Source of the DNA: a virus
Strand: one strand, 5' to 3'
Virus record (IMG/VR): IMGVR_UViG_3300025508_002497
Location: 1-64,000 of that record
DNA: 64,000 nt
Below the pieces are notes generated by a model. It saw nothing but the letters and a program-made list of their open reading frames with translations. It was not told the DNA's origin and did no database searches. The position numbers were made by a program, and so were the translations under genes. Positions 750 to 36,701 of the stretch are shown piece after piece; positions within the stretch are counted from its first letter, which is position 1, and each line of letters opens with the position of its first letter.

Positions 750-3700
750 TTAGTTTACTACCTCGATATAAAAGTCACCAGTTGCAGCAGATGATATCCA
801 AGAAGCGTCTGGACCACCAGTTCCGCCTGTCACTGTAACCGTAGGACCAATACCAGATCCAGTAGGACCAGTAGAACCAGCGGGACCATTGCCGCCAGTG
901 GGTCCAGTGGGTCCAGTAACACCACCACCACCAGCAGTGTTTTGGAATGTTCCATCAGCGAAGGTGATACCACCCCCCGATGCCATCGAGATACCTGCGA
1001 GGTAGTATAGTGCATTTCCAGATAACACTTCATAGGCATTGGGAATGTGAAATCGCGTGGTATAGAGTGTAGCGAGACTACTATCTTGAATCACTAGTCT
1101 ATTCGCACCACTCTGTCGTAATTTTATTTGTCCACCATCATAGGCATTCAGGATACCAGTATAATTCAAATCACCACCAGCAGTAATACCACCATCACTC
1201 GAAACACCAGCGACATGAACTATGGCGGTTGGATCTATACCTAGAGTAGATCCAGCGAGTGTCATACCTGCACCAGCAGTTATTGTAGATCCAGTAGGAG
1301 CAGTCGATTGGAAGGTTCCATCTGGGAAAGTGATTCCACCTGCGTCAAGAGAGATACCAGTTCCAGCGTGAACATATGTTGATGCTTTGACATATGTTCC
1401 TGCTTTAACAAAACCATTGTCTGCGTTAAATCCACTAGTAGTAATTGTTGCGTTGACTTGAGTGTTGCCGTTGGTCACTCTCCATGTGAAGTTACCATCA
1501 GTAAACCCATATTTAGAGTTTACATTACCTGAACTCTGAACCATAGCACCATAATTAATAAAATTACCACCAGCAGTAATTCCACCATCACTAGAGATAC
1601 CAGCAACATGAACTATGGCGGTTGGATCTATACCCAGAGTATGACCGACACCAGCAACGGTTGTTGATAATGTCATACCAGCACCAGCAGCAAGAGTAGT
1701 ACCACCACCACCACCTGCACCATCTTGACCAGCAGGTCCAGTTGGACCAGTAACACCATCAATACCAGAAATCTGCAACCAACCTAAAGTAGTTCCGTCA
1801 AAGACATTTGCGTAGTATAAACCAGTATCATTCTCATACCAGAAGTCTCCTGTTGCAGAACCCACAGGAGCAGTATTACCTGCGGTGTAACCAACGGAAG
1901 TACCATCAGAACCATCGGCACCAGTAGGACCAGTGGGACCAGTGGGACCAGTAACACCATCAGAACCATCGGCACCAGTAGGACCAGTGGGACCAGTTCC
2001 GCCACCAGCAGTATCTTGATAAGTTTCATCAGGGAAGGTGATACCTTTACCCAGCGTGATACCAGAACTTGCCGTCACTAGTCCAGCAAGAGTACTTGCA
2101 CTCCCTATCGAAATACTACCACCAGAGTAAAGTAAAGTAGGTGTTATTAAAGTGGAGAAGTTACCGCCGGGATTAAATCCGATTGTTCCCGCTCCCGCGC
2201 CTCCTCGATCCATTTCTATAAATGACGCCGCGCCGACTGCTCCGAAAACATCAGTTGAAATTCTGCCAGATGCGGTAATACCACCATCACTAGAAATACC
2301 AGCGACATGAACTACGGCGGTTGGATCTATACCTAGAGTAGATCCAGTTAGGACCATACCTGCACCAGCAGTTACACCAGATCCAGATGCGGCACTTGAT
2401 TGGAAGGTTCCATCAGGGAAGGTAATGCCAAGGGCATCCATTGAGATACCCTGTTTTGCATGGAAAAGTTCGTCTGCCTGAAGTTTTACATAAGCAATAA
2501 CACCACCAGACTCAACCTTCATTCTGGACTGTCCGCTAGTGTTCACATAAAAGTTATTGAGTCCACCATCTAGTATTATACCAGTAGTAGGATTACCTGC
2601 ACCACCAAGTATTTTAGTGGCATTCACGATACCGTCAAAAGTAGCACCACCATCACTAGAGATACCAGCGACATGAACTACGGCGGTTGGATCAATACCT
2701 AGAGTAGATCCAGCGAGTGTCATACCTGCACCAGCGACTATTTCAGATCCACTAGCGGCACTTGATTGGAAGGTTCCATCAGGGAAGGTAATGCCAAGGG
2801 CATCCATTGAGATACCTGCTCTTGCATGAATCAAGTTTGGTGTATCGTTTGCACGACCAGCACCGAGAACAAGAAGTGTTCCCGTAGAGGCATGAACTCT
2901 ACCCACACGACCGAGGTTCTGAATCAGATCAGTTGCACCAGAAGGTCTTGCGGCGGTAATCCCACCACCAACTCCAACATACACAGTATCGTTTGCGGTA
3001 AATCCTGATGTATCTGCGTCTCGAACAAGACCAGTGACAACCATGTAACCTTCGTCGTTCGTGGAGAATGCTCCAGTGACAATACCAGCAGCGGGCATCT
3101 TCGCTGAATCAGATGCGTCTGCCTTTCCGACTGTTACGCGATCGGATGCACCGACATTTCCTGTGATGTAAACTGGATCCAATGCTGCAAGTGCTTCGTC
3201 TGCTTTGATTGCCTTGAGAAGTTTACCTTCGATGTCTGCTTCTAGGTGAGGATGGTTTGTGTCCTGAGCAAAGAGAACCGAGTTGTCACCAGAGAATCCA
3301 GTACCATCGTGGTAGAGAACTTGATTAGTTGCGGCACCGTTGAAGTCAACCGACATGGTGTACCCAACACCTGCAACGATTGACGATAAGATTACTCCGT
3401 TACCAGCAGCAAGGGTAGCACCACCACCACCTGCACCATCTTGACCAGCAGGGCCAGTGGCCCCAGTAGTTCCGGGACGACCACTAACCTGCAACCATGC
3501 TAGTGTAGATCCATCATAGACATTTGCATAGTATAATCCAGTATCGTTTTCGTACCAGAAGTCTCCGGTATTAGAACCAGATGGTGCGGTATTTCCTGAT
3601 GTGAAACCAACGGAAGTACCATCAGAGCCATCGTCACCAGTAGGACCAGTAACACCATCAGAACCGGCACCAGTGGGACCAGTGGGACCAGTAACACCAT

Positions 3701-5258
3701 CAGAACCATCGGCACCAGTAGGACCAGTGTTACCCTTAGTTCCTTGATCACCAGTAGGACCAGTGTTACCAGTAGGACCATCGGCACCAGTAGGACCAGT
3801 AACACCATCAGAACCATCAGAACCATCGGCACCAGTGGGACCAGTGGGACCAGTAACACCATCAGAACCGGCAGAACCATCGGCACCAGTGGGACCAGTG
3901 GGACCAGTGGGTCCATCGGAACCATCGGCACCAGTGGGTCCAGTAACACCATCAGAACCATCGGCACCAGTAGGACCAGTAACACCATCAGAACCATCGG
4001 CACCAGTGGGTCCAGTAACACCATTAGAACCATCAGCACCAGTGGGCCCAGTCGGACCTTCTAGATCATTAGGTGTGAGGTTCTTGATTGTTACTTGACC
4101 ACCCATACCACTGTGGTATTGACATCTGTAGTATAGAGTATCAGGTGCATCATAAGGAACAGTAAATGTTATATCACCACTATCTGCTCCCGCATTTACA
4201 ACTCCCGTGGTGTATAGATTACCAGAATCGTAGGCACCACCATTGTCGGTGGTTTGTAGGTGGAATGGATGTCCACTTACACTTCCTGCAAGTGAGAAAA
4301 TATATTTCTGACCACGGAGAAGATAAATCGTATCTTGTTGAACAGTGTCGATAAAGTATTTGTTACCAGAGCCGGGATTACTTACAGTAACATCATAGGT
4401 TTTTGCTATAACTTGTTCACCCGTGGCACCAGTAGGACCAGTAACACCATCAGAACCATCGGCACCAGTAGGACCAGTAGGACCAGTAACACCATCAGAA
4501 CCATCGGCACCAGTAGGACCAGTGTTACCCTTAGTTCCTTGATCACCAGTAGGACCAGTGTTACCAGTAGGACCATCAGAACCATCGGCACCAGTAGGAC
4601 CAGTGTTACCCTTAGTTCCTTGATCACCAGTAGGACCAGTGTTACCAGTAGGACCATCGGCACCAGTAGGACCAGTAACACCATCAGAACCATCAGAACC
4701 ATCGGCACCAGTAGGACCAGTAACACCATCAGAACCATCGGCACCAGTAGGACCAGTAACACCATCAGAACCATCGGCACCAGTAGGACCAGTGTTACCC
4801 TTAGTTCCTTGATCACCAGTAGGACCAGTGTTACCAGTAGGACCAGCACCAGTGGCACCAGTTGCACCAACAGGACCAGTTGCACCACCACCCGCACCAG
4901 ATCCTAGTTCTTGCCAAGCGGTTCCATCGAACCCATAGAACTTAGAGTCACCCTCATTGAATACGATCGTACCATCTTGCTTGTTACTTGCATCCAAGAA
5001 AATCTCAAAAGCAGTTCCATTATATCGAACAATATCATTGTCCCCAACACCAGTAATCGTGCCGAAGTTTACATTCAGAGCGGACACATCTTCTAGGATG
5101 TATTTGTTATCTGTTGTTAGGCCTGGATTGAGAGTAGCATCTTCTTGGATTCCCTGAACCTTGAAGTTAACATCACCAGAATCAACCATGAAGAAGAAGT
5201 CACCACTGGTTGCGTCTCTATTCTGTTGTTTTAGAATGTCGATTAAGGTAATAGGCAT
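750..5258 (-). CDS. Collagen-like fibre protein (1502 aa): DUF2793-like N-terminus, Gly-X-Y repeats, cupredoxin-like domain, cement-like domain, repeated fibre joints
   Basis: Long [15 protein letters not shown] triplet runs; GHPFH...[12 protein letters not shown] motif; two copies of [16 protein letters not shown]; repeated GIDPTA(V/I)VHVAG(I/V)SSDGG. Confidence 0.85.
2337..2399. repeat. 63-bp exact direct repeat, copy 1
   Basis: agtagatccagttaggaccatacctgcaccagcagttacaccagatccagatgcggcacttga is identical to 28735..28797. Confidence 0.9.
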
Positions 5259-6940
5259 TAGGAAACCACCACTTCTGTTGATCCAAGACTTGCATTATCT
5301 GATCTGTAGATGAAATATGTTTCGGAGAATCCAGCACTGTTAGTATGTGCAGTTGCACCACCATGAAGTTTACTGAATCCGCCCGCAAATCCACCCACCG
5401 TGAAACTAGCATCTCCATAACTTGATGGATATGCATAATATATGTATTCACCCGCACCTGCGTTAACCGAGAAACTATAACTTCTATTGTTATCTAAGTT
5501 TGAACTCAGTGATGACAAGTCTGGACCAGTTAACCCAGCGTTACTCGAAACACCATAGTAGTTGTTATTTCTGAAAGTTATACTATCGGTTGATGTCGCA
5601 AAACTTCCATCACTACCCGTCGCACCCAGAGTGAATGTTACACTACTATTCTTACTTGCAGGGAATGCTATATTATTAGATGCGACTGATGCAGATCCAC
5701 TCGACAGATCCACAGGGAATCCAGAGTCGGAAGATGCATTGGTTGTTACATCGGCATCAGCAACCGAAATACTGCCGGGAGTTTGGTATGTTGCAGACAA
5801 ACTTCTACCAGTGAGACTGTAGTTGCCAGTGCCAATCAGTGCAGTCGAACTACCAGAGATACTGAACGAGTTGATACCAAAGACAAACTCGGAGTCTAGG
5901 AAAATATCTTGGGCACGAATGTAATCAAAAGTAACTCCACCATCTTCGAGCAAGACTGGGAACTTTCTACCCCCACCACTCACGGTGTTGATATTATCAA
6001 AGTTGATACTATGATCGAGTGAAGTTCCTGTTGCGAATGTGGTATCAAAGAGTCCGTCTCCTGTAGCACCAGTTGCTCCTGTAACACCAGCGGCGCCAGT
6101 TGCTCCTGTAGCACCAGTTGCTCCTGTAACACCAGCGGCGCCAGTTGCTCCTGTAGCACCAGCGGCGCCAGTTGCTCCTGTAGCACCAGCGGCGCCAGTT
6201 GCTCCTGTAGCACCAGTTGCTCCAATAGAACCATCTTCACCAGTAGGACCAGTATTACCAATAGGACCATCTTCACCAGTAGGACCAGTCACACCAGTAG
6301 GACCAGCAACAGTAGAAGCGGCACCAGTAGGACCAGTGTTACCAGTAGGTCCAATAGAACCATCTTCACCAGTAGGACCAGTGTTACCAATAGGACCAGT
6401 CACACCAGTAGGACCATCTTCACCAGTAGGACCAGTCACACCAGTAGGACCAGCAACAGTAGAAGCGGCACCAGTAGGACCAGTGTTACCAGTAGGTCCA
6501 ATAGAACCATCTTCACCAGTAGGACCAGTTACACCAATAGGACCAGTCACACCAGTAGGACCAGTCACACCAGTAGGACCAGCAACAGTAGAAGCGGCAC
6601 CAGTAGGACCAGTTACACCAATAGGTCCAATAGAACCATCTTCACCAGTAGGACCAGTGTTACCAATAGGACCAGTCACACCAGTAGGACCAGTCACACC
6701 TGTGGCACCTGTGGCACCTGTTGAACCAGTGACACCCACATCACCAATAAGGCCTTGTGGACCTTGTGCGCCTACTCCCGATGCTTGTAGAATTTTCACA
6801 ATCGCAGGCAAGTTTTGTTGACCATTAGGGGAAACTCCCCCTCCAACAGAAATTGCATTGGTACTACTAGTGATGACATTGACGCGAGTCGCTGTCTCAT
6901 CAACGTTTGTACTACTTGTGATAACTCTAACTTGGGGCAT
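5258..6940 (-). CDS. Collagen-like virion protein (560 aa) with C-terminal beta-rich domain
   Basis: [12 protein letters not shown] triplet runs at about aa 55-295; C-terminal YYGVS...[11 protein letters not shown]...TNSAG...YFIYRSDN domain resembling the C-terminus of 31713..32801. Confidence 0.85.
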
Positions 6941-7386
6941 TATCTAGTTACCTCAGCACGAACTTCAAAGCGGCCTTGTAATACTCTAGTGACAACCTCG
7001 CCGGCGATTAACTCAATGTCATATAAGTGTCTACCAGAAGGACAGTTTTTCATAGTTTCGGCATCAATGCTAACATAAACTCCACCAGTTGCACCTGTAG
7101 CACCTGTGAGTCCTCCATTGGAGGCGTTTAATAACATACCACCTGATCCCACAACACCATCTGGTTCTGTATAAGATCCTGTTGTACCACCACCCTTAAC
7201 CACACCAGAAGACGTATCTCCTGTTATACCAATCAAAATATCGGTAGCATAAGAAGAACGACGAACCTGCATTCTTCCTTGATATGAGTCTAGATCAATT
7301 GCTTCTTCACTATTAGTTTCATACAAAAAATAGAGAACATAGTTCGCACCTTGATCTGCTAAGATGTTAAATTGTCCAGCAGCCAT
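6940..7386 (-). CDS. Small beta-sandwich virion protein (fibre-attachment/adaptor type seen in T4-like phages)
   Basis: Pattern NI.ADQGA...IDL..Y.GRMQVR...YDIEL...VTRVLQG...V..EVTR; SD AGGAG upstream. Confidence 0.7.
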
Positions 7387-7405
7387 ATACTTCTCCTATT
7401 ATATT

Positions 7406-7414
7406 GTATATATG
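7406..7414 (-). promoter_or_regulatory. Putative gp55-type late promoter variant CATATATAC for fibre module 2
   Basis: Intergenic, 20 nt upstream of the ATG at 7386. The identical 9-mer lies upstream of fibre module 1 (32827..32835). Confidence 0.5.
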
Positions 7415-7417
7415 CTT

Positions 7418-8662
7418 TTAGGATCGAGCCTTTTTCTTCTTCTTGTACGTTTTGGTCTTGATTTTAGGAGGATTAACCGACGCTTTCTTCTGTTGCTTCT
7501 CCCATTCGGCTCTTTGATTCCTGATTTCCTTGACCTTTTCTTCGTAAAAAGGAAGATTACTCTTGATTCTTTCCATTTGATCAGCAGGAGCCTTGTTTTC
7601 CTTGAGGAGTCTTAGAGTTGCTTCGTATCCCTCTTCAAATCTGAACATATAGAAAGCGGTAGCAGATAGTTCGTCCAACGCTCTCCAATGATAGCAGTCC
7701 TCTGATACGAAAAGAATATCTTGGGGAGGAACTTGTAAGTCTACCGCCATCTTCGCATAGATGTATGCTGTTCTTGGACGATTATTCATACGATACAATC
7801 GTGATAGTTCTACCAGAGGCTCAGCACGGATTGGTCTATATTCAAATGACTGTAAGAGATGCTCTGTAACTTCATTGAAAGGTTTGTTTTGAATACCAGC
7901 GATCATCGCTCTTCTGAATAGTGAATAGAAGCACTCCTCTTCCCATCCACCCATCTCTACCCTCTTACCATAAGCCTCAAACGACTTCTCCCACTGCTGC
8001 GAATCAAAGTAAGATTGAGCGAGGTAGAATTGATACCGTTCGTTTGTTGGTTCGTAGTTTGGATCATCTGGATTGGTAAGAGCAGACAACAGAACTTCTG
8101 CGTCTCTACTATACTTTTCTTGTGGTGTGATTCCTACGTTGCGATTGCCCTCGGTTCTGGCGATAACGAAATAGTTACCATTAATTTTATCAACTCTTGT
8201 TTGTTCTTTTGGTTTGGCTGGACAGTGGGCATACTCATGAAGCACTCCCTTATACTCCCAACCAATACCCAACTTGAAGATTTGATTCCTCCACCACATA
8301 AACTCAGGACGACCAAGACGAATTGAATACGAGTCCGCATCCATCTTTGAGGGATACCTAAAATCACCATCGATGTAGTCATCTGCATCAATCATCCATG
8401 CATATTCGGCATCGCTACTCTCTGCGTTTCTTAATGCTTCTGTTCTTGAAGGACCAAAACCTTTCCAGTCAGACTGATGAACAGTGCCAGGAACACCCAA
8501 CTCATCCATTGTCTTCTTGATTAGATCTTGTGTTCCATCTGTAGAACCAGTATCAGTAATATCATATCGATCGACATACTTTGACATCGATCGAAGACAC
8601 TCTTCGATAATATGAGTCTCATCTTTTACGATCATACACAGGGTCACTTTTGGTCGGCTCAT
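7418..8662 (-). CDS. GT2 glycosyltransferase with C-terminal TPR repeats (SunS/SgtA-like architecture)
   Basis: LCMIVKDE...DTGSTDGT...W.GFG.SR..AL...DADD N-terminal domain; helical YLAQSYFD...EPLVELSRLYR TPR-like C-terminus. Confidence 0.88.
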   Translation of the reverse strand: MSRPKVTLCMIVKDETHIIEECLRSMSKYVDRYDITDTGSTDGTQDLIKKTMDELGVPGTVHQSDWKGFGPSRTEALRNAESSDAEYAWMIDADDYIDGDFRYPSKMDADSYSIRLGRPEFMWWRNQIFKLGIGWEYKGVLHEYAHCPAKPKEQTRVDKINGNYFVIARTEGNRNVGITPQEKYSRDAEVLLSALTNPDDPNYEPTNERYQFYLAQSYFDSQQWEKSFEAYGKRVEMGGWEEECFYSLFRRAMIAGIQNKPFNEVTEHLLQSFEYRPIRAEPLVELSRLYRMNNRPRTAYIYAKMAVDLQVPPQDILFVSEDCYHWRALDELSATAFYMFRFEEGYEATLRLLKENKAPADQMERIKSNLPFYEEKVKEIRNQRAEWEKQQKKASVNPPKIKTKTYKKKKKARS

Positions 8663-9537
8663 GATAAATCCTTAATCCATTCTTGTAAATTCACTTGTGG
8701 TTCCCAACCCAACTCTTTGATCTTCTCGATCATTGCTTGGGTGGCAAACACTTCTCCACTTCTCTCATTTATGTAGGTGATATTTTCTGAGATCATATTT
8801 GCGATCTCTTTGATCGAGTAACTCACACCAGATCCAACATTATACACTCTGGACGGTGTGGTATTCTTCTCGGCAACTAGTATGTTCGCATCAACCACAT
8901 CAGAAACATTAACGAAGTCTCTTCTCTGTTTACCCTCACCAGTCACAGTGAGTGGCAATCCTTCTTTATTCTGCTTCATGAAGACGCCCAACACTGGAGC
9001 ATACTGTCCTGTTGTGTGCTGTCGATTTCCATAGACATTGAAGTAACGCAGGATCGTGGTGTGCAATCCGTACAGTTTAGAATACATCCTACACAGATCT
9101 TCACCAGCGTACTTAGATGATGCGTATGGATTTAGTGTTGGGCAGAGTTTAGAACCTTCACTCTGTACCATGTGATCACATTCGTACACTGCCGAGGTAG
9201 ATGAAAATACAAAGTTTTTCACATTGTTATTTCTTGCTGCCTCTAACAATGTAGCAGTTCCAATCACATTCGTTTCATAGCAATCAATGGGATTTAGTAT
9301 AGCATCCTGAATCCTAACATCAGCAGCCATATGAAACACATAGTCTATGTCTTTCATTATTACATTGACTAAATCAAAATCACAAATATCACCAACCCAA
9401 TTCTTGGCTGACTCATTCCAATACGCAATAGTACTACCATTTATGTCTAGGCAAGTAACAGCATGACCCTGATCAATCAGACGATCTACTAAGTTACTTC
9501 CTATGAAACCTGCTCCACCTGTTACTAACACTCTCAC
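8659..9537 (-). CDS. NAD-dependent nucleotide-sugar epimerase/dehydratase (extended SDR)
   Basis: TGGAGFIGS, SSTSAVY, YASSK, LRYFNVYG, RDFVNVSDVV motifs. Confidence 0.93.
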   Translation of the reverse strand: MRVLVTGGAGFIGSNLVDRLIDQGHAVTCLDINGSTIAYWNESAKNWVGDICDFDLVNVIMKDIDYVFHMAADVRIQDAILNPIDCYETNVIGTATLLEAARNNNVKNFVFSSTSAVYECDHMVQSEGSKLCPTLNPYASSKYAGEDLCRMYSKLYGLHTTILRYFNVYGNRQHTTGQYAPVLGVFMKQNKEGLPLTVTGEGKQRRDFVNVSDVVDANILVAEKNTTPSRVYNVGSGVSYSIKEIANMISENITYINERSGEVFATQAMIEKIKELGWEPQVNLQEWIKDLS

Positions 9538-9755
9538 TTGAAGAAGACCTCAATACAAATAACATTTTTATCATTAATCATTATCATACTACCGTCAGAT
9601 CTTTCTAACTTAGTAAACTGTCCTTGCTTAATATTATCAGTTACTATGTCAGTGAATGTTCTCTTTTCTCCACCCATAAAATGAATTATCTGGGTGCATG
9701 TTTTTCCATTACTTGAAATAGTAGACTTAGTTTCTGTTTTCATACCGTTCAACAT
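9534..9755 (-). CDS. Hypothetical protein
   Basis: Fills the gap between overlapping neighbours; no recognised motif. Confidence 0.55.
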   Translation of the reverse strand: MLNGMKTETKSTISSNGKTCTQIIHFMGGEKRTFTDIVTDNIKQGQFTKLERSDGSMIMINDKNVICIEVFFK

Positions 9756-10185
9756 TTTCTTCTCTCCATCTCATAGGATTATCAGTGCATACTCCAGCAA
9801 CATTTATTTTATTTGGAATGGATTGACCATGATCTACCATGATGCCACCTTCAATTTCATGGCCAGGAAAACACCAAATATATCCCCTACTAGTTAAGGT
9901 CATTTGATCGGTTTCATGCCAGAACCAATGAATATCCTTTTCATTCCTTAGTAAATTAACCACCTCTTTATTTTTAGCGTGGACCCACACTCCAGATTGT
10001 TTTAAAAAATTCAAATCTATTCTGTAGTTAGGTTGATCGTGACCTAACCATAGATCAGTTTCACACAACCAGACATCCACTTCTACGTCAAAACCTTTTT
10101 GTAAAACTTCAATGACTTGTTTGGGGTGGTTTTCTGTTTCAGAATTCGCTCCATTAGTGTTTGCTCTGTGTGATATAATCATCAT
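9727..10185 (-). CDS. PLC-like/glycerophosphodiester phosphodiesterase-fold protein
   Basis: ISHRAN...EN.P...GFDVEVDVW...LGHD...HAKN motifs. Confidence 0.7.
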   Translation of the reverse strand: MMIISHRANTNGANSETENHPKQVIEVLQKGFDVEVDVWLCETDLWLGHDQPNYRIDLNFLKQSGVWVHAKNKEVVNLLRNEKDIHWFWHETDQMTLTSRGYIWCFPGHEIEGGIMVDHGQSIPNKINVAGVCTDNPMRWREENVERYENRN

Positions 10186-10841
10186 CTAGACTGCGCCCTT
10201 TCTGAGTATTCTTTACCCCATAACATATTATGATATTCAAAATTGTTCTCCAAAATGCTTTCAGTGTCAAGAGTTTCCCAATATGGATCTAAGAAAACCC
10301 ACTTCATTTTTTCTATCGTAGTATATCTAAGTTGGTCGTGACAAGCAAGTGTATTTTGAAAATTATCCATTCCATTTAAAGTATCATCCCACTTTAATAT
10401 ATTCCAGCCCTCAAGAAACACATCAATATCCCCGTACATACAAAGATCTCCAATGACAAAGGGGGTGCTTGGATGTGTTGTTACTAAAAACTTTTTATTG
10501 CCTAAAAGTGAATCATAATATGAGTGAACACCACTACATGCAAAAATACAATCTGCTCTTTGTTTTAAAACTCGTTCAAATCCTTGTTTCTTGGCAAACT
10601 CCAAACCTTCTCTCACACATTTTGGATGACCGTAACCAACTTCACCTGTTCGTATAGTATCTGACCACAAAACTTTATCACAATATTTTGTCGCATTTTT
10701 TGGAAACATGCCGTGACCAGATAAAATAATAAACGAGTCTGGATTGTGACGACGAAAATGCTTTAAGGCAAACGTCATAAGATCCTTTTTATAATCCTGA
10801 TCAACCCATATATGTGAAAACAAAGCACATTCAGAACTCAT
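10182..10841 (-). CDS. Hypothetical protein, possibly a glycosyltransferase (GT-A/WavE-like)
   Basis: Lies within the glycan island; VLKQRAD and IGDLCMYG resemble the K.R.D and D..F.G motifs of the neighbouring WavE-like protein. Start likely MSSECAL. Confidence 0.4.
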   Translation of the reverse strand: MSSECALFSHIWVDQDYKKDLMTFALKHFRRHNPDSFIILSGHGMFPKNATKYCDKVLWSDTIRTGEVGYGHPKCVREGLEFAKKQGFERVLKQRADCIFACSGVHSYYDSLLGNKKFLVTTHPSTPFVIGDLCMYGDIDVFLEGWNILKWDDTLNGMDNFQNTLACHDQLRYTTIEKMKWVFLDPYWETLDTESILENNFEYHNMLWGKEYSERAQSR

Positions 10842-11409
10842 ATTCAAACCTCTCAATATCTTGTGCATATAACATCTTAATTACATTTTTTGTATTACTG
10901 TTATACATCTCTTTGTGTCTGCTTTTAGGTCTTGATGATGTTCTGTGATGACCTATTTTTAGCGACACTCCTATCTTTTCAGATAGTATTGACATGTCTT
11001 CCCGTAAATTTTCATGTTTACCAATAAAATCTAAATCTCTCTTTGGTGATACAGTAAAATACACAGCAGGAAAAAAGTGAATAGATTCATGAGTGGGTAT
11101 TTTCTGTAACATATCGGGAAGGATCGTACTAACAAATTGATCAAAATCTTCGGCTGGTGTCTGTAGAAAAGGATCAAAGAAAGCAGATACTACCCTATCC
11201 CACGGATTCCTCACAAATGAAAAACCAAATATGTCTTTGTGGGGGGTGTTCTCAAGAAAATCGTTCCATGTTATGTGATGTTCAAGTGGCAGAGGATCAG
11301 TACGATCTATCAGGTTGTAGTGATCCTTAAACCAAACATGAATGGAACTACCAGCACATTTTGGAGTGTGAATAAAAACAAATTTGTTTTCTGGTTCATT
11401 AAACACCAT
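10831..11409 (-). CDS. Sulfotransferase family 2 (carbohydrate sulfotransferase)
   Basis: FIHTPKCAGSS (5'-PSB loop), FVRNPWDRVVSAF (3'-PB), DFIGKHENL..D. Confidence 0.85.
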   Translation of the reverse strand: MVFNEPENKFVFIHTPKCAGSSIHVWFKDHYNLIDRTDPLPLEHHITWNDFLENTPHKDIFGFSFVRNPWDRVVSAFFDPFLQTPAEDFDQFVSTILPDMLQKIPTHESIHFFPAVYFTVSPKRDLDFIGKHENLREDMSILSEKIGVSLKIGHHRTSSRPKSRHKEMYNSNTKNVIKMLYAQDIERFEYEF

Positions 11410-16544: not shown

Positions 16545-16545
16545 A

Positions 16546-25230: not shown

Positions 25231-25489
25231 GCTCTTGGTTTAGAATAACAAAACCACCAAACGTGCTATACCCATCCTTCTTAGAGAAAAGAACCTTAGT
25301 TCCAACATCAATACCCAGAGGAACTTCCGTTCCATTAGAAAGAACTCTTGGAGAACCAATACTATGCACTACACCAATCCCATGAACTTTACTTTCCTTC
25401 TCTTGGTAGATGATACCATTCGTGGTTTCATTCTTAGCAGCCTCCTCTTTGATGGCTACCTTTCCTCTTGTCACATATAAACTACTCAT
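25199..25489 (-). CDS. groES: GroES/Cpn10-like co-chaperonin
   Basis: T.NGII mobile loop, G.V..IG, VG.KVLF, IL...VLGV; 96 aa. Confidence 0.8.
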   Translation of the reverse strand: MSSLYVTRGKVAIKEEAAKNETTNGIIYQEKESKVHGIGVVHSIGSPRVLSNGTEVPLGIDVGTKVLFSKKDGYSTFGGFVILNQEHVLGVVGETD

Positions 25490-26436
25490 TTAAATTCACA
25501 CTCCATCATAATTTGAACCAGACACGCAGTCATGTTGATCTCTGTGTCGGCAACGAAAGCAGCCTTGTAAAGATACTCACCACAGATTAGGATCGCCTGC
25601 GGAATCGATCCTGGCTTCATGTACTCATACATCGAGTCGTAGAGATTACGAATCAAGTCTTCCTGTGAGTTGTCAAGGTTCTCAACCACCCACTTCCGAA
25701 CCTCGGTGAAGTTCTTTTCCTTCATCGACTTCATCAAAGACTTGACGCGGATCTCGCCGATTTGTGCAAGAATACCTGTATCAATCACACCAGAAACCGA
25801 GTAGCGTTGGAGTTCGTTTAGAATCCTACGAATGTCGGGGAAGTGCTTCTTGATAAGTTCAAGCAGAACAGGACGCTCATACTTGACACCCTCTGCCGTG
25901 AGGATGGTTTCGATTCGCTCAAGAATACCAACAGCGAGCGTCGGCTTTTCATTGTTAGGAATCTTGAACTCCACCGTAGTGCATCGGGAGTGCAACGGTT
26001 GAATGATTCGGTTCTTGTAGTTACAAGTGAGAACGAACCTACAACTGTTAGCAAACTCCTCGATTGCACCACGAAGGGCTGGTTGAATGCTCTGGGCATT
26101 ACTATAGTCAAATTCGTCTAGGATCACAATCTTCTTCTGTCCCGTCATCGAGACAGTGCTTGCGAAGTTACGAATGGTTGTGCGAAGAGTATCAATGTTA
26201 CCCTCCTCTGAACAGTTGATCAGTATATAATCAAGATCAAGTTCATTACACAACGCTTTGGCTACAGTTGTCTTACCACAACCAGCACCACCCGAAAGCA
26301 GAAGGTTCTGAACTTCTCCGTTCTTTACCATCTGCTTAAAGGTGGTTTTGATCTCAACTGGAAGAATACAATCATCAATCTTCTGTGGGCGATACTTCTC
26401 CACCCACAGATAGTTTTTCACATCGGTCATTATCAA
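25486..26436 (-). CDS. 44: Clamp loader large subunit gp44 (AAA+)
   Basis: LWVEKYRP, GGAGCGKTT, DEFD, LHSRC, FPDIRR..NELQRY. Confidence 0.96.
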   Translation of the reverse strand: MIMTDVKNYLWVEKYRPQKIDDCILPVEIKTTFKQMVKNGEVQNLLLSGGAGCGKTTVAKALCNELDLDYILINCSEEGNIDTLRTTIRNFASTVSMTGQKKIVILDEFDYSNAQSIQPALRGAIEEFANSCRFVLTCNYKNRIIQPLHSRCTTVEFKIPNNEKPTLAVGILERIETILTAEGVKYERPVLLELIKKHFPDIRRILNELQRYSVSGVIDTGILAQIGEIRVKSLMKSMKEKNFTEVRKWVVENLDNSQEDLIRNLYDSMYEYMKPGSIPQAILICGEYLYKAAFVADTEINMTACLVQIMMECEFK

Positions 26437-26443
26437 TCCTTAG

Positions 26444-27136
26444 TCAAGCGTTGTAAGTTGAATCAGTTTCCAGTGCGATCCAATACTTGACATCAGTGTT
26501 CGTGTTCGTAAAGGAACTCACAACAGATTCACAGATCTCAACATCATAATCTCCAGGCAGGAGTTTGAGGTTGTCAATCTTGAAGTTGAACTCAAAGTTG
26601 GGAGTGTCTCCAAGAACATCACCGACCGCAACAGAATAGTCGTTGGATGTAGGATCCTTCTTGTCCCGAACAACAGCGAGAATGTTCTCACCACCCATCG
26701 AGGTAAACGAAAGGTCGGGAAGTTGAAGAACAGAAGCAGCACGCTGAAGATCAGCGAACACACTCTGAGTCAGACTGAGATTGATTACAGTCTCAGGCAT
26801 CTGAACCTGCTTGTTGATCGTAGTAAGAAGACTGGGTTCAGAGTAGTAGTAAGTAACTGCTCGCCCACCTTCTCCTGAGATCTTCACGGACTTTTCACCA
26901 AACACACATGTTGGTGAATCAAAAAGTGACAGCGTACCGAGAAACTTGTTCAGATCCCAGATACCAAACTCGACAGGGAAGTCTTCCTGAACCGTTGCTT
27001 GTGCCATAACGTTCTTGGCGCCAGTGACCGTGTTGATCACATTGCCAGGACGAACGAGAAGGTTAGAGTTGAGTTGAGAAAAGTTCTTCAGAATCGAGAG
27101 TGTTTCTTGCGAAATACTAGTGCTTGTCATAACCAT
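26444..27136 (-). CDS. 45: Sliding clamp gp45
   Basis: LS.ETL.ILKNF..NSN, FGIWDLN.FL, NLKLLPGDY.V, YWIALE. Start adjusted to the ATG with a GGAG SD. Confidence 0.95.
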   Translation of the reverse strand: MVMTSTSISQETLSILKNFSQLNSNLLVRPGNVINTVTGAKNVMAQATVQEDFPVEFGIWDLNKFLGTLSLFDSPTCVFGEKSVKISGEGGRAVTYYYSEPSLLTTINKQVQMPETVINLSLTQSVFADLQRAASVLQLPDLSFTSMGGENILAVVRDKKDPTSNDYSVAVGDVLGDTPNFEFNFKIDNLKLLPGDYDVEICESVVSSFTNTNTDVKYWIALETDSTYNA

Positions 27137-27162
27137 TACAAATAAATCTCCAGTTGGGATGT

Positions 27163-27354
27163 TCAATCATCATATGAATCAAATTCTAGATACTCATCTA
27201 GATCATTAGAGTCTACAAGACCATGATTAACTTTGTCAATCATAATCTTTGTGTTGTGTCGAGAAGATCTTTTAGCCTGTTTCTTCTGACTGCGGGTGCC
27301 ATTTTTAGGTCCACTATCCTCTCTATAAGGATTATCTTTTGGGTTACGTCCCAT
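27163..27354 (-). CDS. Hypothetical small protein (basic N-terminus, acidic C-terminus)
   Basis: SD GGAG; first ORF after a sigma70 promoter. Confidence 0.6.
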   Translation of the reverse strand: MGRNPKDNPYREDSGPKNGTRSQKKQAKRSSRHNTKIMIDKVNHGLVDSNDLDEYLEFDSYDD

Positions 27355-27377
27355 TTATAAACTCCATTTCAATATGT

Positions 27378-27405: not shown

Positions 27406-27418
27406 GTGATAATTTAGA

Positions 27419-27879: not shown

Positions 27880-27883
<4 letters not shown>
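27419..27883 (-). CDS. Hypothetical protein downstream of the fibre (possible tip or chaperone)
   Basis: ATGA overlap with the fibre gene; Thr/Ser/Trp-rich, beta-type composition. Confidence 0.6.
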
Positions 27884-31712
<3,829 letters not shown>

Positions 31713-31713
<1 letters not shown>

Positions 31714-32801
31714 TATGTATTAACCCTCATTGAAACTTCACCCGCAAAGTTATTGGTAGATTCCCAAATATCATAAAGGATATCAAGACCATACTCATTT
31801 GTATGTGTAAATGAACCAGTGAGACCAAAGGGGAAACCCAATCCATTTGCAGTATTAGTCATCGTTAAAGTTCCTGAATACTCACTCTGTGGTAGTATGA
31901 AGAAACCTTTATTCCCAGGCGAGACAGCAGGGAAAGTGAAAGTCCAGTTATCTGGGGATGTTCTACTGAGAGTATCAGTAAAACCTTGTGCTGTTAAACC
32001 TGTCCCATCAAAACCAGTCGCAGTTCTACCACTGAAGTATCTATAACGCCAGTTCATGGTATCAGTTTTAGTTGGATTACTTCCACTTGCCTGCTCACCC
32101 TCAATCGTGAAGGTAAGAGTTTTTTCTACATTGAAGTTATACGCCCCATGAGAAATCGATTGAGGTGAACCATCGTAGTTCAAACCAGAGACAAGAGTTC
32201 CAACACTCTGATTTGCAGAGATTGAAAGGGAACCAGCAACCCAGTTTGCGTTTGGACCAGCAGTAGACCAAGTAGAGTTTACCGTTGTATTACCAGCGGT
32301 TTGTCCAACTTCATATGGTCCAGAAGAAAGTCCAATATCAAAGGCGGAGAACGAAACTGGTTGGTATGCGAAGAGTAAAGTTTCTAAGATTTCAATGGCA
32401 GTAGTTCCATCACTAAATGATGTTCCTGCTACAATACCACCAAGACTATCTGGGAATGTTTCACCACCTCTAGTCCAACCTCGAACCGCAAAAGTAGGAC
32501 CGTTTAGAGTCAGTCCTGTACCAGCAACATATGTGTCACCTGTGCCATCCGCTCCAGTCACACCTGCGGGTCCAGTGGGTCCAGTGGGTCCGTCAGCACC
32601 ACTCCCGCCACTTCCACCACTACCACCAGCACCAAGTGAAACCCACCCAACACGGGTGCCGTGTTCGGGTGAGTGACCGATGATAGTATCTGTTGCTAGA
32701 TAATATAATCCATTCTTTCTAACAACATCACCGGGATTATAAGTTATTAGGTTACCGTTTGCATCTACTGCCTTGTAATAACCTCGATATTTATTTCCCA
32801 T
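31713..32801 (-). CDS. Virion protein with a short collagen segment, probable paralogue of 5258..6940
   Basis: [13 protein letters not shown]; C-terminal YFSG...FFILP...[15 protein letters not shown] resembles the C-terminus of 5258..6940. Confidence 0.72.
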
Positions 32802-32826
32802 AGGATTCTTCCATAAAGAATACCTA

Positions 32827-32835
32827 GTATATATG
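32827..32835 (-). promoter_or_regulatory. Putative late promoter variant CATATATAC for fibre module 1
   Basis: Intergenic; the same 9-mer as 7406..7414. Confidence 0.5.
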
Positions 32836-33537
32836 TTATGAATATGTCCTCAGAATCACAGTATCCTTATTGATTCTACCTGTAGGGATAGCGTTTTTCG
32901 TTTTAATGTTATTGATAACACGCTTGGTATAATCGATACGTCCCTCTGTTATATTACTAAGAAGAGTCAAGTTATTCTTTCTGATAGTCTTAGTAACAGA
33001 ACTTTCAGAAAAATTTTGAATAGTAGTTCCCTTGACACTAAGACCTTCCTTAGTACTAGCCTCAAACAGAGTTAGTTTCTTGGTCTTAGTGTTGAAACAG
33101 AGAAGGCCACTAGCACCCACGATGTTGACAGGATCGATCGATTCTAGATTGAACTCTTTTGATTCAGGCATATACTGAACCGACTTCACGAGTTTATTGG
33201 GATCGACCTTTCGTTTGCGTCGAGTGATCTTAGACTTCGCTTCTAGAACTTCAATCAAAGAGTCCAGATATTCGTCTAGTTTCTTCAACTTAGTAGTCGA
33301 AAGAAACGAGTAACCTTCCACCAAGTCCTCGTCGGTTTTGTTGATGGCTCCAGTGATCTCACCTCGTACTTCAATGAAGTGATCTCTTAGGAGTTTGATT
33401 TCTCTTTTAGTTGGTTTGTAAGACTTGATCGCATTCTCGAAGTTGGGCTTTCTAATCGAACCACCATCAGAGAGTTTACCCATATAATCGTCCAAGAATC
33501 GTTCAAGAATATTACCAAATTCGGTGTCTTGTTTCAT
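32836..33537 (-). CDS. Conserved hypothetical protein of T4-like phages
   Basis: SIDP..IVGA..L..FNTKTKKL...GLSVKGTTI.NF...KTIRK...TGRINKD pattern. Confidence 0.65.
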   Translation of the reverse strand: MKQDTEFGNILERFLDDYMGKLSDGGSIRKPNFENAIKSYKPTKREIKLLRDHFIEVRGEITGAINKTDEDLVEGYSFLSTTKLKKLDEYLDSLIEVLEAKSKITRRKRKVDPNKLVKSVQYMPESKEFNLESIDPVNIVGASGLLCFNTKTKKLTLFEASTKEGLSVKGTTIQNFSESSVTKTIRKNNLTLLSNITEGRIDYTKRVINNIKTKNAIPTGRINKDTVILRTYS

Positions 33538-35108
33538 TATGCTTTCCGAAAAACAAAGATAGGTTCATACTTCAAATATCTGCCGTTCACTTGACAGAAG
33601 TTTTTGCACTTTGGTTTGCCGTCTTCACCCACGCGGTTCTGACCAGGCATTCCTTCTAGTGCCATTTTCATTTTGTATTTATATTCTACACCAAGTTCAC
33701 CCAGTATGTCAATAGAGTCTTGCTCTAAAGGCAGATATTCTCCCTTGATCAATATATCTGCAATGTTCCATAGGAGATAGCCGCCTGGTCGTAACCATTC
33801 AGCACAAGTGGAAAGTGTCGGTCGCAAGAATCCATCACGCCATGACTCATATGAACTTCCATACTTCTTGTAACTCTGGTTTTCATCTTCACTATAAGCC
33901 TCTCGATTAAAATAAGGAGGAGAAGTGAAGACCACATCAATCTCGCCTCTGTGCTTTTGAAAATCTTTGTCATACTGAATCTCCTCGGAACCTAGTTGGA
34001 AGACTTCGTATGTATGTGTGCTTGAAAAGAATGGGTTTGATCTGTATGTTTTTGTGTTGTAAAAATCTGCGAGATCACTATAACGAGAACTTCCATCATT
34101 ATTAAAGTTATCAGGATTGGGGTCAGTGCCAATGTAATGCAGAGTGCGATCATCACGGACAGCCATAGCCCCAAGGATACGACCACCCCAGCCACTGCTC
34201 GGATCATAGATCTTAATCGGTCTGTCTTTGATGTGGTTAGTGAATCGCTCATACAAGTATTTAGCAGTCATCGGTGGGAAGTTTACTGCGGGTTGAATGT
34301 AGCCGATACGAAACGACTTGAACCCGCCAGGAAAAATCTTCTTACCTTTATCATACAAACGAATGGCATAGACAGACTCATCGTCCATGTTGTCGATGTC
34401 AAACGTCGAGTGGTGTCGATACTCCAGACGATCGCGGAACTCTTCGACTTCTTCTTTTGTTAACTGAAGAATGTTTGTTTGCTCTACTTGATGATAGCCT
34501 GTATTCAGTCCTTCTCGGATCTTGACTTGTTCGAGCAGGAAGTCCTTGCCCGCAAACATCGTCGGATTCTCAAAAAACGCGAGGATCCAATCCCTAGCAG
34601 AATCAACAGATACAACGCTATGCTTCCTCGAACGCTTGAGGGTGGAGACAGCATGAGAATAAAAAGAGTCCCTACGAAAGTGCCGAAGAGAACCTTTATA
34701 CACTCGATCAAAATAGTCTGGGTTGGCGACAAGATCGTAGATCGAGTGTCCATTGTCTTTCTCCGTATAGTTGATTCTTGTCTTAAACATATTGTCGAAG
34801 AACTGATCGGCTTCAACACCAAGTCGAGACTTGTTGATGATCACATCTTTCGGTGTGTCACTTAGTTCGTCATCGAACTCAAACTGATGAGCAGGAAACT
34901 CCGACATGCGGTTGAACGCAGTAACAATATCCTCTTCGTTCTTTCCCGTTCGAGGAGGACAGCCGTTGTTGTCCCACGCGGCAGTCAACTCTTCACGAAG
35001 TTGAATCACCCAATCTTTGAACTGATCGGGTGTCATCTCTAGAAGGTCTTCAAAGTTTACATTGACATCACTATTAATGATGGCATCATTTCGTTCGTAA
35101 AATCTCAT
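33537..35108 (-). CDS. SAM-dependent amino (N4-C/N6-A) DNA methyltransferase-like protein
   Basis: YDPSSGWGGR (motif I) precedes FTSPPYF (motif IV); LRPGG. Start likely MRFYERN at 35108 (ATGA overlap). Confidence 0.8.
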   Translation of the reverse strand: MRFYERNDAIINSDVNVNFEDLLEMTPDQFKDWVIQLREELTAAWDNNGCPPRTGKNEEDIVTAFNRMSEFPAHQFEFDDELSDTPKDVIINKSRLGVEADQFFDNMFKTRINYTEKDNGHSIYDLVANPDYFDRVYKGSLRHFRRDSFYSHAVSTLKRSRKHSVVSVDSARDWILAFFENPTMFAGKDFLLEQVKIREGLNTGYHQVEQTNILQLTKEEVEEFRDRLEYRHHSTFDIDNMDDESVYAIRLYDKGKKIFPGGFKSFRIGYIQPAVNFPPMTAKYLYERFTNHIKDRPIKIYDPSSGWGGRILGAMAVRDDRTLHYIGTDPNPDNFNNDGSSRYSDLADFYNTKTYRSNPFFSSTHTYEVFQLGSEEIQYDKDFQKHRGEIDVVFTSPPYFNREAYSEDENQSYKKYGSSYESWRDGFLRPTLSTCAEWLRPGGYLLWNIADILIKGEYLPLEQDSIDILGELGVEYKYKMKMALEGMPGQNRVGEDGKPKCKNFCQVNGRYLKYEPIFVFRKA

Positions 35109-35872
35109 GCTCCTACATTCCAAAAAAGTGCGCCAGGTGACGCATGATCCTTGATAAACTCCCACGCTTTTGCGTCGTAGGTTGGTGCGGACGGGAATGG
35201 GGGCAACACTTTGGTTGCTTTGTTGAAGGCGTATTTCGACTGGTAGGTCTTAGCCTTTCCGTACTCGCCGCTATGTCCCACACGGACGCAGTGAAAGGAG
35301 GATCCTTGCCATGCGAGTTGTAGTCCTCTGGTGAGTGTTCCACTTGATCCTACCGTCCAAACTTCATCTGGACATACATCCATGTTACGAGCCACCCTAA
35401 TGATGGAAGCGATAACAGTAGGATGGTCAAAACCAATAGGAAGTAATCTGCGATGCTTTGGATCTTCTGCAACATAATCTCTTGCCCTTTTTTCGGTCAC
35501 ACTAAGCATCCCGTTTGGGATCCAGTGCATTATAGCACCTGCTTCGATTGCTTGCAACTGATAAGGGTGTCTTTTTTCGACAGCACGATCTGCCATGAAG
35601 ATCACCGCCTTCTTGTCATACCTGCCACACAGATGTGCAAGTGAGATCTGAGCATAACCAGTGGCAGGTGAACTGCCATACACCCACTCATCAATCTCAG
35701 GCTGTGACTGGATCAGGTAGTCGGCGAATCGCATCTTCGACCCACCACCGATGAGATCATCACGGACGACGAGGATCCCCTCATGCTCCTCCACGATGGG
35801 AGCAGGGAGGGAATCCGTCCAATCACCGATCATCTCTAAGTAGTCTTCTGCTGTCTCTGTGAATAGACTCAT
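35105..35872 (-). CDS. PLP-dependent fold-type II enzyme (ACC deaminase/D-Cys desulfhydrase-like)
   Basis: VRDDL.GGGSKMR (PLP lysine), VGSSGTL phosphate loop, PTYDAK, FWNVG. Start MSLFTET has a GGAG SD. Confidence 0.8.
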   Translation of the reverse strand: MSLFTETAEDYLEMIGDWTDSLPAPIVEEHEGILVVRDDLIGGGSKMRFADYLIQSQPEIDEWVYGSSPATGYAQISLAHLCGRYDKKAVIFMADRAVEKRHPYQLQAIEAGAIMHWIPNGMLSVTEKRARDYVAEDPKHRRLLPIGFDHPTVIASIIRVARNMDVCPDEVWTVGSSGTLTRGLQLAWQGSSFHCVRVGHSGEYGKAKTYQSKYAFNKATKVLPPFPSAPTYDAKAWEFIKDHASPGALFWNVGA

Positions 35873-35882
35873 TTTTCTCCGA

Positions 35883-36701
35883 TCATAGATGATAACATAA
35901 GTTCCTACAGATATTAACATTCATATCATAATCATCGGTGGGATCTATTAGTGTCTGAACTTCATTACCTACAAACTGCTGTATTCCATTTTTTCTAGCA
36001 GAGGCAGAAAAAGTTACATACTCCATTTGAACACCGTCCGTGGTGTAATCTAATCCTTTATGAATTTGATCTGTTCTAATCATGTAACACATATGAACTA
36101 GATCAACAGCAAAAGTTCCAATAAGAGTTTTATTCCATATTGGTCTAGACATATTCTTATTTTCTTCTGAACCATCATAGTAACCATTTGAAGAACACCT
36201 CAAATAAAATCCTCTAGGAAAAGCACCATCATTATGCACCATCATAGGCGCAAAAATAGGTTTGTTTTCACGCACACAATACTTTATAGTTTCTGGTGGG
36301 AAAAAATTATCCCCATCACAAACGAAGTAATAGTCACACCCAGTATTTAAGGCATGGTACATACTTGCATTTCTTATTTTCCCGAGTGTACTGAGTCTAA
36401 TCCCACCTTCTGCGTACCACGCCTCTTCTCCACCGGGACCAGCCGAAACACCATCTAACTCATGAAAATATTCTTCAAGAAAAGTTACCGAACGATACTT
36501 TCCAGACTCATCTATTTTTTTACACCAGTCTCTAAGTTTTACGTTGGTGTTATCACTATTGTTATTTGTATGAACATAGATCGACAGATATTCAGGATCA
36601 TAATCAATATTTTCTACGCACTTTAAAAACATGGACAATTTATTTTCCATGTCTCTTACTAGTATTGTAATTTGCACTATTGGCATCAATCCTCTAGACA
36701 T
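35883..36701 (-). CDS. GT-A protein resembling the N-terminal domain of procollagen galactosyltransferase (COLGALT) and PLOD GT-like domains
   Basis: Colinear motifs NNNSDNT..LRDW, YRSV, CDYYFVCDGDN, ENKPIFAPMM, SSNGYY, GTFAVDLVHMCYMI, FSASARKNGIQQFVGN. Confidence 0.75.
   Translation of the reverse strand: MSRGLMPIVQITILVRDMENKLSMFLKCVENIDYDPEYLSIYVHTNNNSDNTNVKLRDWCKKIDESGKYRSVTFLEEYFHELDGVSAGPGGEEAWYAEGGIRLSTLGKIRNASMYHALNTGCDYYFVCDGDNFFPPETIKYCVRENKPIFAPMMVHNDGAFPRGFYLRCSSNGYYDGSEENKNMSRPIWNKTLIGTFAVDLVHMCYMIRTDQIHKGLDYTTDGVQMEYVTFSASARKNGIQQFVGNEVQTLIDPTDDYDMNVNICRNLCYHL

Follow-up and report, generated by a model that had tools for sequence, protein, structure and literature searches.

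The first 64,000 nucleotides (hereafter the window) of the 97,163-bp linear IMG/VR virus contig IMGVR_UViG_3300025508_002497, the completeness of which is estimated at about 54%, contain a 17-kb island of sugar-pathway genes (7418-24344) leading into genes of threonine-rich collagen-like proteins. On balance, the sequence is best read as encoding a phage-borne cytoplasmic protein O-glycosylation system that would act on the outer proteins of the phage's own virion. Its central enzyme, designated here as GT2-TPR (7418-8662, 414 aa), is a predicted protein glycosyltransferase (GT) composed of a family 2 catalytic domain and tetratricopeptide repeats (TPR), resembling SgtA of Clostridioides difficile; judging by its sequence and structural model, it is likely to glycosylate the virion fibre proteins. 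That the whole island serves the fibre glycan is suggested by gene content with a probability slightly short of even. The virus itself is an uncultured aquatic phage, the backbone genes of which are those of a T4-like myovirus, and all genes of the interval 1-40 kb are located on the minus strand.

GT2-TPR is covered over its full length by PHROG 13126, and Pfam places a GT2 domain at residues 8-100. The metal-binding DxD motif of the GT-A (GT2) domain is evident from Pfam, the alignment and the model, and the residues D92-A-D94-D95, H142 and E143 are invariant among 38 aligned homologues. In the AlphaFold model (pLDDT 92.4), the GT-A domain occupies residues 1-170 and a helical repeat residues 180-396; this repeat is plain in the model, while Pfam matches to TPR are below threshold (E 0.016-0.15). 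The profile built from the 38 homologues matches designed TPR proteins (E 1e-4), and Foldseek finds TPR proteins and the TPR domain of OGT. Searched against the PDB, the same profile retrieves GmaR (3e-14, confined to the first ~100 residues), SunS (2e-8) and ThuS (8e-7). Foldseek aligns the model with SunS and ThuS over the full length (E 1e-14), and teichoic-acid transferases align with its GT-A half only. As the solved relatives SunS, ThuS and GmaR all glycosylate proteins or peptides, GT2-TPR is, by its predicted fold and nearest kin, a protein- or peptide-directed glycosyltransferase. The best matches among viral models are GT2 proteins of giant viruses (30-35% identity, TM 0.8), the hosts of which have no lipopolysaccharide (LPS). 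About 3000 metagenomic homologues share 50-63% identity with GT2-TPR, while cultured phages encode distant relatives only, and no close homologue was found in cultured cyanophages and pelagiphages. The enzyme ends in a Lys-rich, low-confidence tail (...KTYKKKKKARS, 7418-7465, minus strand), and a basic tail is conserved in its homologues.

SgtA (CD3350) of C. difficile combines a GT-A domain with four TPRs, and bclA3 follows directly downstream of its gene (PMC7157674). In vitro, in the presence of Mn2+, it transfers beta-O-N-acetylglucosamine (GlcNAc) onto Thr (and Ser) of GPT collagen repeats (PMC7157674). BclA3 is a collagen-like glycoprotein of the exosporium, which SgtA primes in the cytoplasm and on which unidentified enzymes extend the glycan (PMC7157674). 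The sequence-only reading had pointed to this analogue, and rightly so, since both the GT-A and TPR build and the position upstream of a GPT collagen gene are the same (PMC7157674); the likeness, a soluble GT-A enzyme with C-terminal TPRs encoded upstream of a G-X-Thr collagen gene, is one of architecture and gene order. There are differences, however: the present genes come from a lytic T4-like phage, in which a virion fibre takes the place of the spore coat as the presumed substrate; the phage catalytic domain has ~170 aa versus 260 aa reported for SgtA; a gene of 148 aa separates the phage enzyme from the collagen; and a 16-kb sugar island is attached to it. No Clostridioides locus was present among the 80 prokaryotic loci returned by our scan, and no paper that proposes an SgtA-like glycosylation of collagen fibres in phages turned up in literature searches.

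The best full-length structural matches, SunS and ThuS (PDB 7MSN and 7MSK; ~415-420 aa, GT-A domain and helical repeat), are S-/O-glycosyltransferases of glycocins that act on a peptide encoded beside their own gene, which resembles the phage layout. They share, however, only 15-18% identity with GT2-TPR, which scores 23.5 bits against NCBIfam TIGR04195 (SunS), where the cut-off is 350, and the neighbours of the phage gene encode a short-chain dehydrogenase/reductase (SDR), a virion protein and collagen fibres, while genes of a glycocin precursor, thiol-disulfide enzymes and an ABC exporter are absent. GmaR of Listeria monocytogenes, a flagellin O-GlcNAc transferase (PMC9638930), is the best solved match by sequence; in this enzyme, too, TPRs come after the GT domain, and its substrate, a protein of a surface filament, is modified in the cytoplasm. 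Unlike the 414-aa phage enzyme, GmaR has 637 aa, carries an anti-repressor domain and belongs to a flagellar regulon.

GT2-TPR is the last gene of the island and is followed by a 31-bp spacer (7387-7417), the gene of the 148-aa protein (6940-7386) and two genes of Thr-rich collagen-like proteins. Gene layout, Pfam Collagen matches and triplet counts thus bear out the earlier description of a contiguous, co-oriented island running into Thr-rich collagens with GT2-TPR at its end. The first collagen-like protein (5258-6940, 560 aa; Pfam Collagen 2e-31) has Thr at the Y position in 49 of 75 triplets and matches PHROG tail-fibre families, mostly via its repeats. In the second one (750-5258, 1502 aa; Pfam Collagen 3e-39), globular domains break up the triplet runs, and Thr occupies Y in 59 of 108 triplets; over its first 125 aa, it shares 35% identity with the 'structural tail protein' of Pseudomonas phage PaBG, and residues 33-119 match PHROG 16122, a virion structural protein. 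The 148-aa protein (PHROG 1084 and 3304) has Gly/Thr-rich loops and was modelled as an Ig-like domain (pLDDT 92.5), the closest PDB folds being chains of ~140 aa from the tail tips of T5 and DT57C, along with a baseplate chain of 80alpha. The T5 chain is, we assume, the collar protein that anchors the side fibres of T5, and the model suggests that the 148-aa protein is probably a fibre anchor or collar protein as well. The function of a tail-fibre assembly chaperone, which is the label of PHROG 3304, was considered and rejected, as the fold matches the small Ig-like T5 tail-tip chain instead; a structural anchor is therefore, according to the model, more likely. It is this T5 tail-tip-like fold, together with the PaBG tail-protein homology, that makes the fibre genes look structural. 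The module ends, as far as it is visible, with an ORF of at least 249 aa at the contig end (2-748), which has no family matches and a homologue of which follows the collagen gene in the related locus L011.

The 148-aa protein contains five G-x-T-[GA] motifs, while 0.37 would be expected, and its homologues contain ~3 on average; its sequence makes it a possible second acceptor for the adjacent transferase. Outside collagen runs, such motifs are enriched over composition in the 148-aa protein, in the fibre proteins and in several very large ORFs at 60-76 kb, while all island enzymes and replication proteins up to 41 kb contain a single one, in WecB. This enrichment could fit a wider set of acceptors and, equally, structural repeats. 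Large ORFs without a known family (1518, 1944, 387, 431 and 911 aa; contig positions 60129-75761 and 92725-94203) contain 3-4 times more G-x-T-[GA] motifs than composition-matched shuffles.

A second fibre module (27880-32801), encoding a 362-aa protein and a 1277-aa collagen-like protein (27880-31713; Pfam Collagen 2e-72; 167 triplets with 83 Thr, 38 Lys and 35 Gln at Y), is located between gp46 and gp45. The promoter-like motif CATATATAC was found only twice on the minus strand, at 7406-7414, within the 31-bp spacer, and at 32827-32835, each time just before a fibre module, and related ATATATA(C/G) motifs occupy the same spacer in related phages. Since the motif precedes both fibre modules and similar ones lie in the spacers of relatives, the fibre genes probably have a promoter of their own, which would likely be a late one. 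Possibly, CATATATAC represents a late-promoter consensus unlike that of T4, TATAAATA, which is absent in and before the island and the fibre genes. Related motifs, ATACATA and ATATATA, precede several structural genes at 41-56 kb.

Gene order was compared among 80 related phage loci from IMG/VR. In all of them, GT2-TPR is located at the downstream end of a variable gap after regA, and in none is there a collagen-like ORF upstream of it. Among the 61 loci with at least 2.5 kb of downstream sequence, GT2-TPR is directly followed by a homologue of the 148-aa gene in 34, and one of the next three genes is collagen-like in 27. Directly upstream of GT2-TPR, an SDR gene was found in 25 of the 76 loci used for that count.

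More than 400 homologues of GT2-TPR (36-43% identity) were found in prokaryotes, including Mycobacterium, Streptomyces, other Actinomycetota, Burkholderiales and other groups, in a scan of one genome per species; collagen-like genes were counted at 64 of these loci. A Thr-dominated collagen-like ORF (G-A-T or G-P-T) lies within 5 kb of the enzyme gene at 19 of them, often 30-300 bp away, and a Thr-poor one at a single locus. This linkage spans at least two bacterial phyla. Whole genomes of 3.4-9.9 Mb contain ~2-10 places with collagen, one or two of which are at the enzyme gene, so that adjacency by chance would be expected in less than ~1% of cases against the 30% observed. Five of the Thr-rich ORFs were confirmed by Pfam, including fusions of collagen with PE and with a TPS/ESPR exoprotein, which indicate that these collagens are cellular surface proteins and not prophage fibres; the PE-collagen fusion comes from a metagenome-assembled genome of Actinomycetota and the ESPR/TPS-collagen exoprotein from Giesbergeria. 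The enzyme tree cleanly splits phage from cellular sequences, and collagen linkage is scattered over many of its branches, with 20 state changes. The co-occurrence of GT2-TPR with G-X-T collagens, expected earlier for related phages, is weak within the phage clade, in which most adjacent collagens are Thr-poor; the linkage to Thr-rich collagens in bacteria is independent of it. To judge from these loci, GT2-TPR and Thr-rich collagen may form a previously uncharacterised cellular glycoprotein system in bacteria.

According to Pfam, the bacterial homologues frequently carry GT25, GT10 fucosyltransferase, FkbM or other methyltransferase domains as fusions (phmmer with the island proteins of the window missed these fused domains), and the phage island carries GT25, a GT11 fucosyltransferase and FkbM as stand-alone genes. 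The fusions tie the GT25, fucosyltransferase and methyltransferase families of the island to the GT2-TPR pathway and are the best available argument, at the level of domain composition, that at least a part of the island may share the product of GT2-TPR. At three bacterial loci (L091:5915-10379, L146:3942-9125 and L125:5048-11522), Thr-rich collagen-like proteins are encoded beside GT2-TPR fused to FkbM, GT10 and GT25.

The proposed pathway would start with GT2-TPR as the priming transferase, a soluble GT-A and TPR enzyme. Its helical domain would hold the unfolded or trimerising fibre chain, while the DxD catalytic domain would add the first sugar to Thr (perhaps Ser) of the collagen-like G-X-T repeats and, possibly, also to the Gly-x-Thr-Gly loops of the 148-aa anchor protein. 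The donor sugar is probably supplied by the SDR, the gene of which overlaps that of GT2-TPR. The GT32, GT25, GT11, GT-B-like and GT-D-like enzymes, FkbM, WecB, the DegT-like protein, GNAT, the sulfotransferase and the swappable cassette might extend and decorate the glycan and provide unusual nucleotide sugars, so that the fibres would bear a strain-variable glycan coat. The observations comprise the families of the enzymes, the fold, the solubility, the order of the genes and the linkage and fusions that recur in phages and bacteria; we infer the acceptor, the sugars and a role of the other island genes.

The island comprises about 25 genes of soluble sugar-pathway proteins, all co-oriented and without gaps. 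It follows regA after 22 bp, without a promoter-like gap, and an apparent gap of 189 bp inside it (9538-9726) contains a small ORF, so that a true intergenic gap is absent; this putative ORF has ~48 codons (approximately 9540-9686 by eye, minus strand), and its stop overlaps the start of the SDR gene. Families were assigned by Pfam or NCBIfam, and assignments with sub-threshold Pfam E-values are treated as weak labels. The transferase block right after regA (20059-24344) encodes a GT32-type protein (Gly_transf_sug, 23682-24344), GT25 (23075-23695), a GT11 fucosyltransferase (22269-23078), a weakly labelled GT-B protein, u291 (21409-22284, Pfam E 0.01), an FkbM methyltransferase (20781-21425) and a second, small GT2 (20059-20784), the other five being Pfam assignments. 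The amino-sugar block (17343-20062) consists of WecB, a UDP-GlcNAc 2-epimerase (19091-20062; Pfam Epimerase_2 7e-59; NCBIfam wecB 203.9 bits, the cut-off being 210), the GT-D-like u263 (18319-19110), a lead from a language model only (Atlas, score 0.93-0.96), a GNAT protein (17942-18325, Pfam 7e-15) and a short DegT-like protein (17343-17960, Pfam DegT 4e-24). The latter has only 205 aa versus 360 positions of the Pfam DegT profile; this short form is kept in several related phages and is thus not a pseudogene.

The swappable interior cassette (9727-17346), annotated by Pfam, NCBIfam and PHROG matches, encodes, besides the proteins u152, u228, u242 and u266, a sulfotransferase (Sulfotransfer_2, 10831-11409), the WavE-like u311 (11399-12334, weak label, Pfam E 0.02), a split transketolase (12331-13438), a nucleotidyltransferase-RpiB fusion (13435-14595), the PfkB-like u256 (14558-15328, weak label, Pfam E 0.12) and a KdsC-like HAD phosphatase (15280-15816), the sulfotransferase, transketolase, fusion and phosphatase being Pfam/NCBIfam assignments. 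It is followed by the SDR gene (8659-9537; GalE-like nucleotide-sugar epimerase/dehydratase, Pfam Epimerase 4e-60; NCBIfam GalE and dTDP-glucose dehydratase 7e-46, under cut-off), the stop of which overlaps the start of GT2-TPR. Most of the enzyme families named in the sequence-only reading were thus confirmed by Pfam or NCBIfam. Its GT-B, WavE-like and GT-D-like labels remain weak, as single-sequence PDB searches with u291, u311 and u263 gave no matches. Methylation, acetylation and sulfation of the virion glycan would follow from the enzyme families only, and we infer them on that basis.

None of the annotated ORFs of the interval 2-36701 reaches a mean Kyte-Doolittle hydropathy of 1.6 over 19 residues, and no sizeable multi-pass protein was found on the 97-kb, ~54% complete contig by this crude scan, which is not equivalent to TMHMM. 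The earlier expectation of soluble island proteins, with no membrane protein, flippase or exporter in evidence, therefore agrees with the hydropathy scan. As in O-antigen or LPS clusters, nucleotide-sugar enzymes and several glycosyltransferases are present, and the ends are conserved while the centre is variable; an initiating polyprenyl-phosphate transferase, Wzx/Wzy or an ABC exporter was not found in hydropathy scans of the 97 kb, which represent 54% of the genome.

The variability of the island is seen in the locus L009, the GT2-TPR of which is 99% identical to that of the window. The flanks are 93-96% identical, while 9758-17313 of the window is replaced in L009 (2522-8905) by an unrelated 6.4-kb cassette with no nucleotide match; the part swapped out holds the sulfotransferase, the split transketolase, the nucleotidyltransferase-RpiB fusion and the KdsC-like phosphatase. 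The amino-sugar block 17343-20062 is 96.5% identical in L009. Another locus, L010, shares with the window only the regA-side transferase block (89.5% identical) and the GT2-TPR end, and the order GT32-GT25-GT11 after regA was found again in L010, L031 and L032. The comparisons with L009 and L010 indicate that the ends of the island are conserved and its centre is swappable, as in serotype loci. It may be tentatively suggested, at rather less than an even chance, that the entire hypervariable 17-kb island produces virion glycan, namely a fucosylated, methylated, possibly sulfated and N-acetylated oligosaccharide on collagen Thr and on G-x-T-G loops. With the same reserve, near-identical phages would swap the interior cassette among themselves in the style of a serotype locus. 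Cassette exchange as such is compatible with a variable virion glycan and with a variable modifier of the host surface alike.

Several observations weigh against assigning the whole region to virion glycosylation. Most of the phage collagens adjacent to GT2-TPR represent one conserved protein, which is charged, has ~55 triplets and is nearly devoid of Thr, so that G-X-T is not a universal acceptor. A clade of 15 phages has regA, GT2-TPR and a dUTPase-like gene, with neither an island nor a fibre gene adjoining. In these phages, the label of the ~165-aa gene following GT2-TPR was judged from sequence motifs only; that it might be a distant homologue of the 148-aa gene was considered and rejected (hhalign probability 0.1), as it looks dUTPase-like. 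One island-less genome has sugar and collagen genes 17-25 kb away from GT2-TPR and only ~4 kb apart from each other. In an island-less relative, L089 (G002:59000-78400), gp41 and gp61 are preceded by the sugar genes, and the conserved ~55-triplet collagen protein follows a gene taken as ThyX from sequence alone. This arrangement implies that the same parts sit in different hypervariable slots within the clade. GT2-TPR belongs to the backbone of this phage clade, and its clustering with sugar genes and fibre genes is frequent without being constant. Besides, GT11, GT25, GT32, WavE-like and KdsC-like families are those commonly met in LPS and O-antigen pathways, and the location of the island right after regA, at a distance of 22 bp, with the fibres having their own motif, may mean a differing timing of expression. 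The missing flippase and polymerase genes leave room for host machinery, the use of which they do not exclude, and little weight can be given to the lack of membrane proteins, since O-antigen transferases of the cytoplasm are soluble as well and the contig covers an estimated 54% of the genome. Of the cytoplasmic virion O-glycosylation proposed from the sequence, the enzyme type and the linkage to collagen have gained support, and the contribution of the rest of the island to a protein-linked glycan has not.

A serious, if unlikely, alternative is a division of labour, in which GT2-TPR and the SDR put a simple sugar on virion proteins, while the other ~23 genes remodel LPS, capsule or another glycan of the host envelope during infection, using the lipid-carrier, flippase and export machinery of the host, possibly for blocking superinfection or altering the recognition of the cell by grazers. 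The retention of GT2-TPR without an island in the 15-phage clade, the sugar genes found 17 kb from GT2-TPR in one relative and the swapping of the island interior independently of the GT2-TPR and fibre end all agree with such a division, as do the position of the island next to early/middle replication genes without a promoter gap, apart from the fibres with their own motif, and the LPS-type families GT25, GT11, WavE-like and KdsC-like. It would also be in line with the published reading of such islands in cyanomyophages and pelagimyophages as modifiers of host O-chains and surfaces or of DNA (PMC7029224, PMC12801897), where large hypervariable blocks of glycosyltransferases and nucleotide-sugar genes often lie near fibre genes as well; cultured members of these groups differ, however, in having no close homologue of GT2-TPR. 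However, the bacterial fusions of GT2-TPR with GT25, fucosyltransferase and methyltransferase argue for one shared product, the displaced island of the relative is still only ~4 kb from collagen genes, and initiating, flippase, polymerase and ligase genes were not found on the 97 kb. If the whole block, including GT2-TPR, acted on the host surface as an 'LPS-modifying AMG island' (AMG, auxiliary metabolic gene), the adjacency of fibres would merely reflect a shared hypervariable gap between regA and the DNA polymerase. This gap is clearly a hotspot of plasticity, and in pelagimyophages and cyanomyophages, fibres and glycosyltransferases do occur together within hypervariable regions of host recognition (PMC7029224), but this explanation is improbable, as the fold and kin of GT2-TPR are those of protein and peptide transferases and not of transferases of lipid-linked glycans, the family is linked to Thr-rich collagens in bacterial chromosomes, where there is no phage hotspot, and homologues exist in giant viruses of eukaryotes.

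Very little speaks for T-even-style hypermodification of DNA, in which the transferases would add sugars to modified phage bases against restriction. The location of GT2-TPR in the island-less clade within a module of replication and nucleotide metabolism, between regA and the dUTPase-like gene, its Lys-rich basic tail and the nearby cluster of methyltransferase-like, pyridoxal phosphate-enzyme and GT genes (33537-36701) could be seen in this light, but the ThyA-family hydroxymethylase (PF00303) was not found in the contig or in five relatives, including the complete 147-kb genome, the fold class and the TPR domain indicate protein substrates, and the bacterial homologues adjoin genes of surface proteins. 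Glycosylation of collagen through lysine hydroxylation was likewise dismissed, as the PF13640 2OG-oxygenase was not found on the contig.

Glycosylation of its own virion proteins by the phage, the reading favoured here, has parallels in other viruses. Mycobacteriophages reportedly glycosylate their own virions at the C-termini of capsid and tail-tube proteins (Freeman et al. 2023), and there, as presumed for the present phage, virus-encoded transferases and sugar-nucleotide enzymes decorate the own particle; their transferases, however, did not appear among the homologues of GT2-TPR. L230 of Mimivirus modifies viral collagen-like proteins on hydroxylysine (PMC9614988), whereas a PF13640 oxygenase was not found on the phage contig.

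The T4-like backbone of the window includes gp47 (38448-39503), gp46 (36730-38451), gp45 (26444-27166), gp44 (25486-26436), gp62 (24811-25230) and regA (24367-24774). A gene of a Cpn10/GroES-like co-chaperonin (25199-25489, Pfam 1.7e-10) is inserted between the clamp-loader genes gp44 and gp62. The product of gp44 is only ~56% identical to those of cyanomyophages, pelagiphage HTVC008M and Methylophilales phages, and megablast of 17-20 kb pieces against cultured phages gave no nucleotide-level matches; a complete relative with terminal repeats has a size of 147 kb. Directly after gp46, a tight trio of genes (33537-36701, minus strand) encodes an Anp1 (GT62)-like GT-A transferase (35883-36701, Pfam Anp1 2e-9), which adjoins gp46, a PALP-fold enzyme with the PHROG label of threonine dehydratase and a 542-aa protein with an N6/N4 methylase-like domain at its C-terminus. 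Whether the Anp1-like transferase belongs to the glycan system is uncertain.

Sugar-gene islands are among the commonest unexplained features of marine T4-like phages and are routinely filed as modifiers of host LPS without evidence. If the proposed function of the region is true, many of these 'LPS AMG islands' would have been misread, and counts of auxiliary metabolic genes would change. Phage particles in the sea would bear a variable glycocalyx of their own, which could affect their adsorption, stickiness, grazing or decay, and the view of phage host range and of particle fate in seawater would change with it. The bacterial loci, a side result of this work, may define a widespread system of surface glycoproteins in Mycobacterium, Streptomyces and Burkholderiales, while abundant aquatic myoviruses would join mycobacteriophages, chloroviruses and mimiviruses as carriers of virus-encoded protein glycosylation systems.

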